From the UHGV virus genome UHGV-0070184: DNA of 18,747 nucleotides, one strand, 5' to 3'. Of the stretch, positions 7,867 through 16,978 are shown piece after piece; the first letter of the stretch is position 1, and every line of letters starts with the position of its first letter. The translations under genes were made by a program, and so were the position numbers. The notes beneath the pieces were generated by a model. It did not search any database and was not told the origin of the DNA. It saw only the letters and a list, made by a program, of their open reading frames with translations. This stretch comes from a virus.

Positions 7867-8245
7867 TGCCCGCTTTATGCAGTGGTTTTCATGCACATGC
7901 ATGACATGAGCAAAAGCCCGCCAGTTCTGGCGGATCTGAGCAAAGACGATCCTCAATCGATCATGCGATTTCATGCAGCATAGTCATGCACTGTCAAGGA
8001 AGTGAAAATCCGTATCTGAATGGCCACTTGAAAAACGGATCATACGGGTTTACAAAGACGAATGTTCGCTGTGAACGGGAAGCGGAAGTTAGCTTTCAGA
8101 TAACATAATCCATATGCACGAGAACCTCTAAAATAGAATGGGACACCTAAGCGGCGTACTTACAACGATTCTTTCCATATTCACAGTTAACACTCTGTTT
8201 GGCGTATTTTTATTCAAATAGCAAACACCAATAAAAGGAGTTTCC

Positions 8246-8581
8246 ATGAACAATATTCCCCCTATACCACAGTTAGGAATTTATGTCTCAAAAATCGATC
8301 CCACCCTACGTATCACTGTAACCGATGTTGATATTGTTGATGGTGAGGATGATTCTCCTGATGATGAATTGTTTTATTTAGTCCACTGGATCGAGGGGGA
8401 AGATGAAAGTGATATGACAGCAATGGAATTTGAGCTAGACCCAGTAGAGTGGCAGGCTTTCGTTGAATCTGAGCAATTAGTGTTTGAGCGTGATCCGTAC
8501 ATGGATTCAATCCCCGAAAATTCAAACTTGGCAAAGATTCGGGATTTTCTCATGAAGACTAAACAGAATGATCATTCGTAA
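8246..8581 (+). CDS. small highly acidic protein, 111 aa, unknown function
   Basis: ATG at 8246 with AAAGGAG about 7 nt upstream; by my count 15 Asp + 12 Glu against 7 Lys/Arg (net charge about -20); acidic runs DVDIVDGEDDSPDDE and EGEDESD. Confidence 0.7.
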   Translation: MNNIPPIPQLGIYVSKIDPTLRITVTDVDIVDGEDDSPDDELFYLVHWIEGEDESDMTAMEFELDPVEWQAFVESEQLVFERDPYMDSIPENSNLAKIRDFLMKTKQNDHS

Positions 8582-8774
8582 GTGTAAGCATCCATCAGGA
8601 AAATGGTTTTGTAAGTGAATCATCAACTTTTAGAGAGTCTCAGACACTCCCACTTCTGCTTCTGACACAAAGCGGACGATCACTTATCAAAAATAACCGC
8701 CCACCTTACGCCTTATTTCACTCATTGCCCAAACTAGCCCCCATCAGAATGAATCCTCCTGGGGGCAACGTTTC

Positions 8775-9008
8775 TTAATGCAGCCAGCTGTCGTCCTCCC
8801 ACACCTTCTGCATAATTTTCATCACTTGTTTTCTTTCTTCATCCAGTTGCAGTCCGGTTAGTTCCACACCGTTAGAGCTACCTTTGCGAATGCGAATTAC
8901 CGTTTTGGGATACAGGGGGCGCAGATTGCGGTAAAGCTCGGATTCAAGGGCGTCCAGGGTAGACTGGCTAATCTTCTGCTCTTTATCGATCATTATTTCA
9001 ATGCGCAT
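8775..9008 (-). CDS. DinI-family protein, 77 aa
   Basis: Internal ATG at 9006-9008 of ORF 8775..9080, preceded by GAGGTGA; product MRIEIMIDKEQKISQSTLDALESELYRNL...MQKVWEDDSWLH follows the DinI pattern (MRIEV..., C-terminal ..TWE..D.W). Lies downstream of a LexA box. Confidence 0.75.
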   Translation of the reverse strand: MRIEIMIDKEQKISQSTLDALESELYRNLRPLYPKTVIRIRKGSSNGVELTGLQLDEERKQVMKIMQKVWEDDSWLH

Positions 9009-9018
9009 AAAAGTCACC

Positions 9019-9207
9019 TCAGCTGATGACATCCATTGAGCGGTTGTATTCGTGGGTTCTGATTTTTGCCATGAGTTCATCAGTCAATTCAGAAACCCAC
9101 TGCAGAGCCAGCCCCTTCTCTTCATCACTACACTCACTGGCCGCTACAAGCTTAAGAAAAAAATCAATGCGCTGGAGCTTCAAAGACTCCAAAAAATAGT
9201 CCTGCAT
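9019..9207 (-). CDS. small protein (62 aa), first gene of SOS-controlled operon; possible Tum-like antirepressor component
   Basis: ATG at 9205-9207 with GGAGGA about 7 nt upstream; about 45 bp downstream of a perfect LexA box; followed by the DinI-like gene. The 186 analogy (LexA-controlled tum in the region beyond A) is from memory. Confidence 0.55.
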   Translation of the reverse strand: MQDYFLESLKLQRIDFFLKLVAASECSDEEKGLALQWVSELTDELMAKIRTHEYNRSMDVIS

Positions 9208-9249
9208 CTTTCCTCCTATGACACCAAAACAATACTGTATACATAACCA

Positions 9250-9265
9250 CTGTTTATATTTACAG
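9250..9265. promoter_or_regulatory. LexA (SOS) box, CTGT-N8-ACAG
   Basis: caCTGTttatatttACAGta at 9248-9267, a perfect match to the enterobacterial LexA half-sites, just upstream of the minus-strand small ORF / DinI operon. Confidence 0.65.
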
Positions 9266-9360: not shown

Positions 9361-11775
9361 TTAATACAGGTTCCGCCACTTATCATCTTCCTTCAGACGC
9401 TGGTTCCGATAGAAGATACGCAGGCCTGCTCCTGACGGAATACTGCCGCCGCGAAGGAGCAAATCGACTTCTTTCTCGCTGCCATCAAATCCCCTGGACT
9501 TCAGTTCATAGACGAGCTGCTGTCGCTGATGGTCTGTAATTCGCTGTTTGTAGTCTTTACGCCGTTTCGGTTTCACCTGGCGTAACCTTGCAGCCAGTTC
9601 CCGGCGCTCTTTTTTGCTCATACTGTGCAGGTAATCGTGCAACTCCTTGTCATTCATACGGGTAATATCCGTTCTGGAGTCCCCATCAGCTGATTTGTCT
9701 TTCCCTTGTTGGTACAAATTTTCACCAAGGGGACAGTTATTGCCACGAGTCCAAGGGGCGCAAGCGCCCTGGTCGGCTGCCGCCTCCTGAACGTCAACGG
9801 CTTTACGAACCATTTTCCACTTCACTGCATGAGTGCAGATCTTGCCCTCTGCAATGGGTGACCAGATGCCATAAATACGAATACCGTGATCGCCATAGGC
9901 GGTCGGCTCTTCGTTGATTTCATAAGCGGTTCTGATGAGGTGATATTTACGGGGAACCAGTACGCCGCCCTGCTTCATGATGTAGGAGGCAAAGCAACCA
10001 GCATCAGCTGCAGCCAGAATGGCATCAAGGCGCGGGTTATCCAGTACCGGCGCACCTGCTTTTTTGTCACCCTGTTGCCTTGCCGCCTGACCAGCCAACA
10101 ATCGCAGTTCACGGTAAGCCTGACGCCCCGGAATGCCAAAGAAGCGGAATTGCTGAACACGATGCAGAGACGCCCAGGCATTAACGTATTCAGCGTTATC
10201 ACGCAGAGATTTCCCCGTTTCCTTGCTGATCTCGCCAGCCAGACCACGCCCGTCAATGTTCTTACTGATGTATTTCGCGATATAGCTTGTTGGCGTACCT
10301 TTGCGCGGGTTAATCAACTCAGACTTAAAGCGCGGCCCAGTGTTATTGCCCAGCTCCTCGCGGTCTTCACGGATGGCAAACTTACGCAGTAATGCAGTGA
10401 TGGCGCGGCGGTCTTTTTTGCGCATAAAACACAACAGGTGCCAGTGAACTGTACCGTCATGATGCGGCTCAGCCACCCGCACGCCATACCAGCGCAATCC
10501 GGCTTTGTGCATCGCCTTACGAAATGCAGCAAACATGCCGACCAGATAATCACTACTTTGTCTTACCGTCGCATTTGTCCAGGTTGGGTTGGGCCTGCCG
10601 TTATTTAGCGTGGAATGGAAACGTGACGGACAGGTGATGGTGTAGAAAACGGCGCAGTCACCGCGCATTTCCGCGATAAGCTCCAGACCTTTAACACAGG
10701 CCATCATCTCATTGCGGCGATGCGCAGGGTTGCTGCTGCTGGCGTTTACCACATCCTCCATGTCCAGCGTGTCGCCGTCTTCGTTCACCAGTTCATGAGA
10801 ACGGAAAAACTCCAGCGACTTACGGCGCTGCTCACGTTTATGCATCACGGCTTCATAGCTGACATAAGGAGATGCTTTTTTGCTGACCAGGCAGACAGCG
10901 CGCAACTGCTCTTCCCGCCATTCGCAACGCATCTTCCATAATTTCCGATACCACCAGTCGGCGCACAACATACGCGCCAGCGAACCCGGAATGAGTTCAT
11001 AGGGCACGGGTTTACGGCGGTTTCTTTTCCAGCGGAGTTGTTCAAACGCAGGTGGGATGACATCCAGACGCAGGGTTTCCGCTGCCACCTTTTCCCATGT
11101 CTTGCGGATTTCTTCTGGCTTAACATCATCGGTGGCGTACAAATCACCACAAGCGGCATCAAGACACATGCTCATATGCGCAGCGACAAGAGTAGACAGG
11201 CGTTTCACCTGATCCTGACTCATTTCAGGCAGGATCAGCAGGCCGTCCAGCCCTTCATGGCTTGCCATAAAGCGAAAAGAAGTGGATAGCTGACTGTCGC
11301 GTACATGCTCCAGTCGTTCCAGACATGGCTTAATCGTCTCACGCAAATAGCGGGAATAAGCCTTTGGCCTGCCCAGGCTGCTGAAGTATTCAATACGTTG
11401 CATCAGCGGCTTGCTGATATGGGAAGGCTGGGCGTTTACGTCCGCCAGAATGACCATGTCTGGATTAAAACGCTGCTGCTCATGCGCCAGCTTTGCCCGG
11501 CTAATGAGCTTATCCTGCTCCATTTCGCGCTGGACAGGATCACGGGATTCATTAAAGAAATAACGCTCCCAGACCTGCTCACTCAGTGCCTCGCGGCGCA
11601 GTTGTTCCTGTTCGTTATCGGCAGCGTACAGAGTGATCAGGTTTGAAAGTGCAGACTCCGGCGCAACTTCCGCCGGATCCAGATAAGGGTTAATGGCCTT
11701 TTTCGGGCCGTTCCATGAAAATGATGCAGCGGCCTCGTTAAAGCCGCTAGAGTTGCTCATATCGTCATGACTCAT
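9361..11775 (-). CDS. A: replication initiation endonuclease (P2 gpA family, rolling-circle HUH nickase), 804 aa
   Basis: HUH motif ..[13 protein letters not shown].., candidate catalytic tyrosine pair [11 protein letters not shown], size typical of gpA; ATG 11773-11775 overlaps the dam stop (ATGA). Confidence 0.9.
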
Positions 11776-14680: not shown

Positions 14681-14805
14681 GATGCAACATTCCTCTTTTA
14701 GCAATGATTAATCAGGATGAATACTGATCGTTTGTATTATGTGAACACTGCAAACATACGATCACATCATGAAATCGTCAAGGTAAAAGTTCACTTGGAG
14801 TGACC
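14681..14805. promoter_or_regulatory. lysis-lysogeny switch region (pR/pL promoters and operators)
   Basis: Intergenic between apl (-) and cI (+). Candidate minus-strand promoter: -35 TTGACG (14776-14781), 17-nt spacer, -10 TATGTT (14753-14758). Imperfect inverted repeat TGATCGTTTG (14725-14734) / CAAACATACGATCA (14751-14764) flanks it. Confidence 0.45.
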
Positions 14806-15369
14806 ATGAATTTGGAAAAAGGCGGTCGTGGGGCCATAGAGCGCATGGTTGAAGCCTATGGTTTCAAGACAAGACAAGCTTTGTGTGATCATTTGGGCAT
14901 TTCTAAAAGCACCTTAGCCACGCGCTATATGCGTGATTCATTCCCGGCAGAATGGGTAATCCAATGTGCACTTGAAACCGGCACGTCGCTAGAGTGGCTA
15001 ACTACTGGGCAAGGTTCAAAAGAAAGTTCACAAAAAGAAAACACAAAAGAGATCGAAAGGAAGATTTTATCAAGCGGAAAACTACTTCCTGATGGTTACT
15101 ACATTTTCGACAACAACTTTTTGCCTGAAAAACTAAAAAAACCTTTTGTTGTGATCGATGGCGCATCAGAGTTTATCTGTGATTCGGATTATGAGGATGT
15201 ACGTGATGGTAAGTGGATCGTTGATATTGATGGCGAGGTTGCTATCAGGAATCTGACAAGACTGCCGGGACGTCGTCTAAATGTCGATGGCGGCAGCAGT
15301 TCCTTTGAATGCAAAATAGATGAAATTGATATCATAGGAAAAATTAGAAGCGCGATCGTCAATTATTAA
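14806..15369 (+). CDS. cI: CI repressor (186 type), 187 aa
   Basis: Pattern ..EAYGF......C.HLGIS.STL..RY.R......W...CALETG..L.WLTTGQG recalled from 186-family CI; GGAG 5 nt upstream of ATG 14806 (the track start at 14800 is GTG). Confidence 0.8.
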
Positions 15370-15578: not shown

Positions 15579-15589
15579 GGTTGCTTCAT

Positions 15590-16921
15590 ATGAATAATGA
15601 TATGACTTTTGAAAACAGAGATGAGTATAATAGAAAAATCATTGCTGAAAAAATAATAAGCTTACTCGAGTCCCCCTTAAAAATATCCCCTATTGTTATC
15701 GATGGGGACTGGGGTACCGGTAAAACCGAATTTTCAAAAAAATTAGCGGCATTGATTGAAAAAAATGAATCTGGGCATAAAGTAGTATATATTGATGCAT
15801 TTACTGAAGATCATAATGATGCTCCCATACTTACTATAATGGCTGCAATAGTTGCATTATATCCAGAGAGTGAAAAGAAGGAATTAATATCAAAGGCATT
15901 ACCAGCATTGAGATTTGGACTTAAAACTGTACTCAAAGCTGGCGCTGGGTGGATTTTAAAACAAAATGCAGATGATATTGCGGATGAATTCGAAGATGCT
16001 ATTAAAGATGCGGCTAACTCAGCTATAGATGGTACTGTAGAAGCACTGCTTGATGATCATATTGAAGCAAAGAAACATTTGCTTGCTCTCAAGGAAGTAC
16101 TTGCTGAACTAACTAGCGAAAATAAAATAACAATTATCATTGACGAACTTGACCGTTGTGAACCAAGCTTTGCCATCTCTATCATCGAAAATATAAAACA
16201 TGTTTTTGACACTGAAAATCTTAACTTCTTGTTAGTTGCTAACATCTCACAATTGAAAGCATCAATAAATCATATTTACGGTGCAGGTGTTGACTCAGAA
16301 AGATATCTTGATAAATTTATAAAATTCACTTACAGCCTGCCAGTGACTTTCACTGAAAACAATTACGATAAAATTTTGGCTTCGAACTCTCATTTTAGAA
16401 TGCTATGTAACGAGTCTGAAAGACTAAAAGAAATTGGAGAAAGTAGTATTCATATAGTTCAAAAATTTATCGAACTAAAAGGCTTGTCGCTACGGGAAGT
16501 TGAAACCTTATCAAGATATCTAGAAATTTATCAAATTTTATCTCAAAATGAAATCAGCAATAAATTTATACCAGGCTATTGCTGTTATCGAACCCTTGCA
16601 GTAATTCTTTATTCGTTTGGTCGTGAACTGGCCCTTAACTACGTAGAAGATAAAATAGATGCACAATTAATAATCAATTTCTTCGGTGTTAATAGACTCC
16701 CATATCAGACAGATCAATATAACATCAACATCTACTATTATGCATTATTTGGTATAACTTATAAATATATGCCAGAAGGTTCTCCTTTACTTCCTTCTGA
16801 AAACGATGAAAAAAACAGATGGGCTGAAATAAGTGATTATCATATTTTAAAAGGAAATGCAGGTGTAGAAGACCCTGTTAGAATATTCAAAAACACCTTA
16901 AAAGTTTTCTTGCTCCAATGA
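15590..16921 (+). CDS. KAP-family P-loop NTPase, 443 aa
   Basis: Walker A GDWGTGKT (G-W-G-GKT form) and Walker B IIIDELDRCEP (DxLDR form), both as I recall for the KAP family; hydrophobic segments lie between them; strongly AT-rich. Start taken as ATG 15590 (the track start at 15581 is TTG). Confidence 0.8.
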   Translation: MNNDMTFENRDEYNRKIIAEKIISLLESPLKISPIVIDGDWGTGKTEFSKKLAALIEKNESGHKVVYIDAFTEDHNDAPILTIMAAIVALYPESEKKELISKALPALRFGLKTVLKAGAGWILKQNADDIADEFEDAIKDAANSAIDGTVEALLDDHIEAKKHLLALKEVLAELTSENKITIIIDELDRCEPSFAISIIENIKHVFDTENLNFLLVANISQLKASINHIYGAGVDSERYLDKFIKFTYSLPVTFTENNYDKILASNSHFRMLCNESERLKEIGESSIHIVQKFIELKGLSLREVETLSRYLEIYQILSQNEISNKFIPGYCCYRTLAVILYSFGRELALNYVEDKIDAQLIINFFGVNRLPYQTDQYNINIYYYALFGITYKYMPEGSPLLPSENDEKNRWAEISDYHILKGNAGVEDPVRIFKNTLKVFLLQ

Positions 16922-16978
16922 AATGTTTGATTGAAGATCTTTAAACATTGACCACTGTTCAAACATACAGTTAAATTT

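Follow-up and report, generated by a model that had tools for sequence, protein, structure and literature searches.

The window analysed here, a stretch of 18,747 nucleotides from UHGV virus genome UHGV-0070184, raises the question of what a small and extremely acidic protein does in the accessory region that separates cos from the replication gene A of a prophage, and whether it acts alone or with one of its neighbours. The coding sequence (8246–8581, plus strand) specifies 111 aa, as judged from the ORF, its composition and a full-length match to phrog_17127. The original prediction had counted 27 acidic against 7 basic residues, with a net charge of about -20 and clustered Asp and Glu. These counts are exact (15 D and 12 E; 4 K and 3 R; pI 4.05), and the acidic residues are concentrated at positions 26–70, where 20-residue windows go down to a net charge of -9. 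No transmembrane, signal or hydrophobic segment is predicted and the protein appears to be cytoplasmic. Its ATG is preceded, at a distance of 5 nt, by the Shine-Dalgarno AAGGAG (8235–8240, plus strand), read from the sequence and as good as had been announced, and the segment is moderately AT-rich, as had also been said, with a GC content of about 0.40 versus about 0.53 in the phage core genes. The start proposed earlier, 8138, has to be corrected: the ATG found there opens a separate in-frame mini-ORF of 27 codons and the 111-aa protein starts at 8246.

The window is a 186/P2-like prophage whose gene order is reversed relative to the P2 map. The scaffold, terminase and portal genes (portal at 5398–6435, plus strand) occupy one end of this order and are followed by a 427-aa P-loop ATPase, cos, the acidic ORF, the DinI-like operon and the replication gene A (9361–11775, minus strand). 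Beyond gene A come CI (14800–15369), a 446-aa KAP-family P-loop NTPase (15581–16921, plus strand) that fills the slot between CI and the integrase, the integrase (17004–18056) and then the host gene rcdA. The cos region (7842–7992) forms a block that is 83–91% identical in 88 P2-like phage records, so that the location between cos and gene A was correctly recognized. In the linear records of Salmonella phage SEN8 and Escherichia phage Midge, the termini correspond to window positions ~7867 and ~7858, respectively, and the cohesive-end cut lies at ~7850–7867. The acidic gene therefore lies within the packaged DNA at ~380 bp from its right end, with transcription directed inward.

The SOS-controlled module that had been noticed alongside is real. 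This convergent neighbour (8775–9265, minus strand) comprises a DinI-like gene (8775–9008; Pfam DinI, E 1.3e-22; phrog_698; RefSeq annotation) and a 62-aa ORF (9019–9207), preceded on the same strand by a perfect LexA box, CTGT-N8-ACAG (9250–9265), that overlaps a TTTACA/TATACT promoter. It provides the context of the acidic gene and is not its partner. A second perfect LexA-type box, CTGTTCAAACATACAG, was found at 16955–16970, ~35 bp 5' of the start codon of the integrase, and the two perfect boxes of the window compare with 0.17 expected by chance. None of them is located upstream of the acidic gene, and its control by LexA was rejected on this ground. A scan of the window with Rfam retrieved no RNA family.

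By its similarity to catalogued sequences, the window protein can be considered as a plain member of the family DUF8087 (PF26332) / PHROG 17127. The profile phrog_17127 covers residues 1–111 of 111 (E 3.6e-70), PF26332/DUF8087 is precomputed on all 61 close homologues, including cluster representatives that are 97% identical, and RefSeq WP_001059831.1 from E. coli B and BL21 strains, which is 99% identical, is named 'DUF8087 domain-containing protein'. The identity of the window protein to the E. coli cluster representative is 97–99%. The name DUF8087/PF26332 is taken solely from precomputed annotation and RefSeq naming, as the Pfam copy that was scanned does not include the PF26332 model and gave no family for the window protein at E <= 0.1. 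No family was obtained either from NCBIfam at E <= 1 or from PADLOC at E <= 0.1. A profile of 34 family members did not match any PDB sequence, and these same members scanned one by one gave no credible Pfam family. Nothing in Pfam, PHROGs, PDB or BFVD assigns the protein to virion or replication functions. The family is not mentioned by any paper of the library that was searched.

A search of 5.8 billion proteins yielded 61 homologue clusters, all from Enterobacterales, and searching 1.84 billion representatives with a profile brought in further relatives of 70–130 residues sharing 26–47% identity. These distant relatives have P8, G11 and W69 in common and all of them are acidic; the 68 family members that were examined, whose identity goes down to 26%, all keep this acidity, with net charges between -8 and -22 and a pI <= 4.53. 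An EGEDExD loop is nearly invariant within the close family, and the conserved acidic patch comprises E50–D56, E63 and E68. The long acidic loop (residues 33–41) varies in length and is missing from some distant members, suggesting that part of the charge may be dispensable. Among near-identical copies, the length of this acidic loop (window 8339–8365, codons 32–40) differs by whole GAT/GAC/GAG codons, giving the variants DGEDDSPDD, DDDDESPDD, DDDSPDD and DDSPDD (window and loci L007 and L017–L020). Such whole-codon changes suggest slippage in a low-complexity acidic spacer.

The DUF8087 gene is carried by 214 of 5426 complete E. coli genomes (about 4%). The window allele was found in 133 E. 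coli genomes (130 at >=99% and 3 at 95–99% identity), including BL21, BLR and other B strains, and an 89% allele in 82. Searches by tblastn detected the gene in 0 of 50,697 GenBank phage records and in only one of 72,556 plasmids, a non-mobilisable one, and it is common among prophage-derived contigs of IMG/VR. The context of the 89% allele was inspected in one strain, PD23, where it lies in an integrase-bounded island next to ychF (L014 6659–12364; L016) that also carries IS elements, a 127-aa ORF (phrog_26730), a 1589-aa Tiamat-like (TmtA) helicase, a large AAA ATPase and a 1546-aa NACHT protein.

In 186/P2-like prophages of Enterobacter kobei, Klebsiella and Buttiauxella, and in several metagenomic/viral contigs, the DUF8087 gene belongs to a lysogeny operon with the order CI-type repressor – Flk-like gene – DUF8087 – int, referred to below as the home operon. 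[quoted passage not shown] This ancestral co-transcription with the immunity repressor and the overlap with int point to expression in the lysogen rather than to an early anti-restriction gene. In the 186/P2-like prophages inserted next to pgsA-uvrC (L022 4341–4976, L003 5343–5990, L057–L059), the gene that separates CI from int is a shortened paralogue of Flk, a flagellar regulator of the host; it consists of the N-domain (NCBIfam Flk, E 3e-15) followed by a membrane anchor at the C-terminus. Flk being an inhibitor of the flagellar secretion switch, the copy carried by the prophage may have an effect on motility or on flagellotropic phages.

The window carries a relocated fragment of the home operon (8072–8620, plus strand), as delimited by a multiple alignment of 7 loci and by tblastn maps, consisting of a Flk-like stub, an intact DUF8087 gene and an int stub. 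Its left boundary (~8072) is common to the copies from Providencia, Serratia, Proteus, Lonsdalea, Symbiopectobacterium and an E. coli island. The Providencia copy follows ogr and adjoins a Septu system, the E. coli island copy adjoins the Tiamat-like helicase and the Lonsdalea copy is located in an ICE-like island. The AAAGG core of the Shine-Dalgarno is preserved in nearly all relocated copies. On the right side, a remnant of the 5' end of a P2-type int (8568–8618, plus strand; 16 codons, MIIRKCKHPSGKWFCK, followed by a stop) overlaps the last 14 nt of the DUF8087 gene; the intact int of the home operon, given for comparison, begins with MAVRRLPTGKWLSESY. Other relocated copies have longer int remnants that contain stop codons and show a pN/pS of 1.03. 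Relative to Escherichia phage 500465-1, which is devoid of it, the insert of the window spans ~770 bp (7993–8764, from pairwise alignments) and is bounded by the cos block on one side and by the 3' end of the DinI-like gene on the other. Three IMG/VR loci (L081, L082 and L085) have at the same site a longer insert, with a 62-codon int stub and a 127-aa ORF, which indicates that the window form is a shortened derivative.

The hydrophobic mini-ORF located upstream (8138–8221, plus strand; MGHLSGVLTTILSIFTVNTLFGVFLFK, with a TAG stop at 8219–8221) is in frame with the DUF8087 gene and encodes one predicted transmembrane segment. Its 3' end and the spacer that follows can be aligned to the terminal part of the E. 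kobei Flk-like gene (...LFGVFLFK-stop versus ...LLGAVLFK-stop), an alignment that identifies it as what is left of the membrane anchor at the C-terminus of the Flk-like protein. What had been described as the gene's own upstream region is therefore the decayed remnant of the upstream gene of the original operon. All 10 relocated copies have kept the mini-ORF intact (pN/pS 0.57), and it could be either a translated membrane peptide or a slowly decaying stub. It has no match in family libraries, including known small toxin families, and was rejected as a known small toxin. In one metagenomic variant (P0003), it is fused to DUF8087. A stricter scan did not reveal any plus-strand promoter between 7740 and 8246. 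A relaxed scan proposed one candidate internal promoter, TTCACA-N19-TATTTT (8180–8210, plus strand), which is weak and has a non-optimal spacing but is the only sigma-70-like site common to 7 of 7 relocated copies. Expression of DUF8087 from the relocated site is thus plausible on the basis of these motifs.

Conservation across related prophages had been proposed as a check. Pairwise dN/dS of the DUF8087 gene is 0.09–0.30 in nearly all computable pairs (0.42 in one pair). Between the window copy and other orphan copies, it is 0.11–0.20 at dS values of 0.27–0.41, with an intact frame. In the relocated copies, pN/pS is 0.17–0.19 for DUF8087, versus 1.03 for the int stub, which contains stop codons, and 0.57 for the mini-ORF. 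As the relocated copies share the same truncation boundary, their divergence postdates the truncation, and constraint on DUF8087 next to a neutrally evolving flank indicates that the gene is kept for its own sake. DUF8087 is a real gene under purifying selection, also after its relocation, and not a chance ORF. An intact gene enclosed between two decaying stubs and moved among defence hotspots can be viewed as a natural experiment, in which the gene is valuable alone.

Whether the gene depends on a neighbour can be examined from the variation of its surroundings. The 427-aa P-loop ATPase located between portal and cos (6476–7759, minus strand) matches the PADLOC single-gene defence candidate PDC-S59 (3.1e-36), and an effect of the acidic protein on this ATPase had been envisaged. 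The two genes occur together in 1 of 5426 E. coli genomes, compared with 214 that have DUF8087. In other loci, the DUF8087 gene faces across cos a retron (BL21), an OLD-like nuclease, an HNH protein, a DUF6236 protein or a 778-aa ATPase. The portal-to-cos interval has at least 14 lengths in 40 window-type metagenomic/viral loci while the DUF8087 side is constant. The two sides of cos thus vary independently, and the pairing of DUF8087 with the ATPase was ruled out. An obligate pair with the Flk-like gene was also rejected, as each of the three further lineages sampled (Erwinia pyrifoliae, Erwinia amylovora and Hafnia) has a Flk-like gene that is not accompanied by DUF8087. Conversely, orphan DUF8087 copies occur without Flk-like or int genes, next to variable neighbours (PDC-S59, retron, OLD-like nuclease, Septu, Tiamat-like helicase), so that both are separable accessory genes. 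The suggestion that DUF8087 is an immunity or antitoxin partner finds no conserved adjacent gene, the sole recurrent neighbour (the Flk-like gene or its stub) being also present without DUF8087. From gene neighbourhoods, it can be taken as established that DUF8087 is independent of its neighbours, without fixed partner.

The slots occupied by DUF8087 are themselves of accessory type. The 446-aa KAP NTPase of the window (15581–16921) matches PDC-S20 of PADLOC (E 7e-171), its match to PifA being weak. As the interval between CI and the integrase holds PDC-S20 here and the Flk-like gene with DUF8087 elsewhere, it behaves as a third accessory hotspot. Both this cI-int slot and the cos slot house defence candidates in these phages, and a P2 defence hotspot has been described (PMC9122126). 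In BL21(DE3), the DUF8087 member, at 859264–859599 of NZ_CP020368.1, adjoins the retron Eco1. In E. coli BLR(DE3) (L009 2884–4932), the gene is located across cos from a retron encoding a St85-family reverse transcriptase and an effector. In the laboratory strains of the B lineage, the prophage gene A and cII are pseudogenes, indicating that the prophage is defective, and DUF8087 is intact.

The fold was approached by modelling. The AlphaFold model (35 sequences) has a pLDDT of 78.5 and a pTM of 0.63, the other four models reaching 60–72. Its elements follow the order beta-beta-beta-beta-alpha-beta-alpha-alpha, and the acidic loop 33–41 is of low confidence. The predicted fold class, with moderate model confidence, is a SH3/Tudor-like barrel followed by C-terminal helices. 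Foldseek comparison of the model with PDB and BFVD gave nothing at E <= 0.001. The likeness to DUF1653 (PDB 3be3), FeoA and the RNA-polymerase-interacting domain of CarD/CdnL, with low scores and 6–13% identity, defines the fold class only and does not imply any functional link. The literature on DUF1653 offered nothing useful.

The structure prediction and Foldseek search that had been recommended were thus carried out, and the model matched neither Ocr, ArdA nor any other solved DNA mimic. The likeness to Ocr and ArdA put forward by the original prediction is not supported: the fold comparison is negative, there is no match to an ArdA profile in Pfam or NCBIfam, and the gene is found in 0 phage records and 1 plasmid. 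DUF8087 shares with Ocr (T7 gp0.3) and ArdA a strong negative charge, a small size and carriage on mobile DNA. However, Ocr and ArdA have helical or elongated mimic folds whereas DUF8087 is a predicted beta-barrel. Furthermore, unlike typical anti-restriction genes, DUF8087 is absent from GenBank phages and nearly absent from plasmids; ArdA would be looked for on conjugative plasmids or in the leading regions of ICEs, whereas a single plasmid among 72,556, and a non-mobilisable one, has DUF8087. Its ancestral place is a lysogenic operon, unlike that of the early anti-restriction genes Ocr and ArdA. Another parallel is provided by CarS of Myxococcus xanthus, an acidic antirepressor with a SH3-like five-stranded barrel that mimics operator DNA and sequesters the DNA-recognition helix of a repressor (PMC2926617). 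Both proteins are small and acidic, and the barrel predicted for DUF8087 may be SH3-like as well. By analogy, CarS is a plausible model for the action of DUF8087, as a precedent for the mechanism and not as evidence of membership.

Taken as a whole, the following model can be drawn. DUF8087 would be a stand-alone cytoplasmic protein made of a small SH3/Tudor-like barrel and C-terminal helices, with a strongly negative surface. It arose as an accessory gene of the lysogeny operon of 186/P2-like prophages, produced along with the immunity repressor, and a fragment including the gene and two decaying stubs was later captured in other accessory slots, here the cos slot. The protein would bind and block, on another protein, a surface that is positively charged and probably binds nucleic acid, by electrostatic or nucleic-acid mimicry, as does the SH3-like antirepressor CarS, and would thereby benefit the prophage or island that carries it when this element is in conflict with its host or with competitors. 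The data above show that the gene is real and under selection, and they show its origin and relocation, its autonomy, its conserved acidity and its predicted fold class; the binding or decoy mechanism, the role in conflicts and the expression from the relocated site are what we infer. The tentatively preferred reading, and a real possibility, is that the prophage makes DUF8087 in the lysogen as a polyanionic binder or decoy that works by itself and is useful in such conflicts. This reading is favoured by the selection acting on the orphan gene, the conserved acidity, the home context, the autonomy, the defence-type slots and the predicted SH3-like fold with the CarS precedent. Against it stand the lack of a convincing promoter at the relocated site, the acidic loop 33–41 that is variable and missing in some distant members, the moderate AlphaFold confidence (pLDDT 78.5) and the co-location with defence genes, which is equally compatible with a defence role. 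The earlier proposal of a modulation of a nucleic-acid-binding protein or of counter-defence fits the conserved acidity and the hotspot locations. A more specific form of the binder model, in which DUF8087 would represent a new family of stand-alone SH3-fold polyanionic inhibitors that mimic nucleic acid, are expressed in lysogeny and are repeatedly captured as orphans in defence hotspots, is somewhat doubtful. The protein neutralised by such an inhibitor would bind DNA or RNA and belong to the host or to a rival element; it could be a defence sensor, a foreign repressor or the derepressor of a satellite.

Other explanations account for part of the same data. Lambda RexA/RexB and mycobacteriophage Sbash gp30/31 sit beside the repressor, are expressed in the lysogen and associate a membrane protein with a cytoplasmic one. 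By analogy, DUF8087 could be half of an exclusion or abortive-infection system in which it would sense an incoming phage and the Flk-like protein or the 27-aa transmembrane remnant would be the executor. DUF8087 and the Flk-like protein have the same repressor-side placement and membrane/cytoplasmic pairing as these systems, with no homology to them. A membrane-anchored ORF lies directly 5' of DUF8087 in every close-family locus read except L010, L025 and L042, the upstream region of the latter having no mini-ORF match, and the mini-ORF is intact in all ten orphan copies. Moreover, these copies are located in defence hotspots and the home slot between cI and int holds in the window the PDC-S20 defence candidate. 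However, in contrast to pairs of the rexAB or Sbash type, the membrane neighbour and DUF8087 are separable, the three further lineages sampled all having Flk-like genes without DUF8087. Furthermore, the mini-ORF is weakly constrained (pN/pS 0.57 versus 0.17–0.19 for DUF8087) and neither DUF8087 nor the membrane protein matches PADLOC. Such an exclusion system is considered as unlikely. A low probability is also given to an accessory role in lysogeny or integration, in which DUF8087 would modulate the integrase, the repressor or an antirepressor in elements that replicate with a GPA-type protein. The overlap of its stop with the start of int in the home operon would agree with this role, as would the precedent of an acidic SH3-like antirepressor and the position of distant members at the divergent regulatory region of betaproteobacterial int – DUF8087 / HTH_17 – GPA elements, where an immunity gene would be expected. 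Nevertheless, the gene has been under long purifying selection as an orphan, the window copy is ~8.4 kb from int, other copies reside in islands or in an ICE-like element with unrelated integrases, and direct binding to DNA is unlikely for an acidic protein.

The classical early anti-restriction DNA mimic, with an Ocr- or ArdA-like function and expression upon entry of the phage DNA, would explain the extreme and conserved acidity, the strong ribosome-binding site and the position of the gene, which is the last one before the right end of the packaged DNA in this prophage, ~380 bp from cos and oriented inward. Yet the fold is not that of Ocr, ArdA or another mimic, no family match was obtained, the gene is found in 0 of 50,697 GenBank phage records and 1 of 72,556 plasmids, its ancestral site is a lysogenic and not an early operon, and no clear promoter was found. 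This function is quite improbable. As for a functionless passenger, whose ORF would survive merely because the fragment was acquired recently, it might be suspected from the identity of >=99% among the window-type copies of 130 E. coli genomes, from the visible decay of the flanks and from the absence of a promoter in the stricter scan. However, the orphan lineages reach dS values of 0.27–0.41 and yet maintain dN/dS at 0.11–0.20 with an intact frame, whereas over the same time the int stub has reached a pN/pS of 1.03 and acquired stop codons; the passenger reading is therefore very unlikely, to the point of being nearly negligible. The remainder of the probability goes to explanations other than those listed.

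If DUF8087 acts alone as an inhibitor or decoy, as in the preferred reading, the few proteins that mimic nucleic acids would be joined by a new fold family, and this accessory factor would come from a prophage in the lysogen and not from an invading phage. As about 4% of complete E. coli genomes and the expression strains BL21/B carry the gene, any effect on host DNA-binding proteins, on phage sensitivity or on the adjacent retron would be of practical relevance. If it is a minor lysogeny accessory, the finding would be an ordinary one.

The distant members from Nitrosospira multiformis and from a metagenomic contig are found in small integrase – DUF8087 / HTH_17 – GPA replication-protein elements (L012 3470–8439 and L013 1–8777). 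The defence cargo of these elements includes a TIR-NTPase-TPR protein, a BglII-type R-M system, Gabija and a SMEK-domain protein, and their DUF8087 members have a basic N-terminal extension that begins with MGQAKLRGSKEERIAQ.
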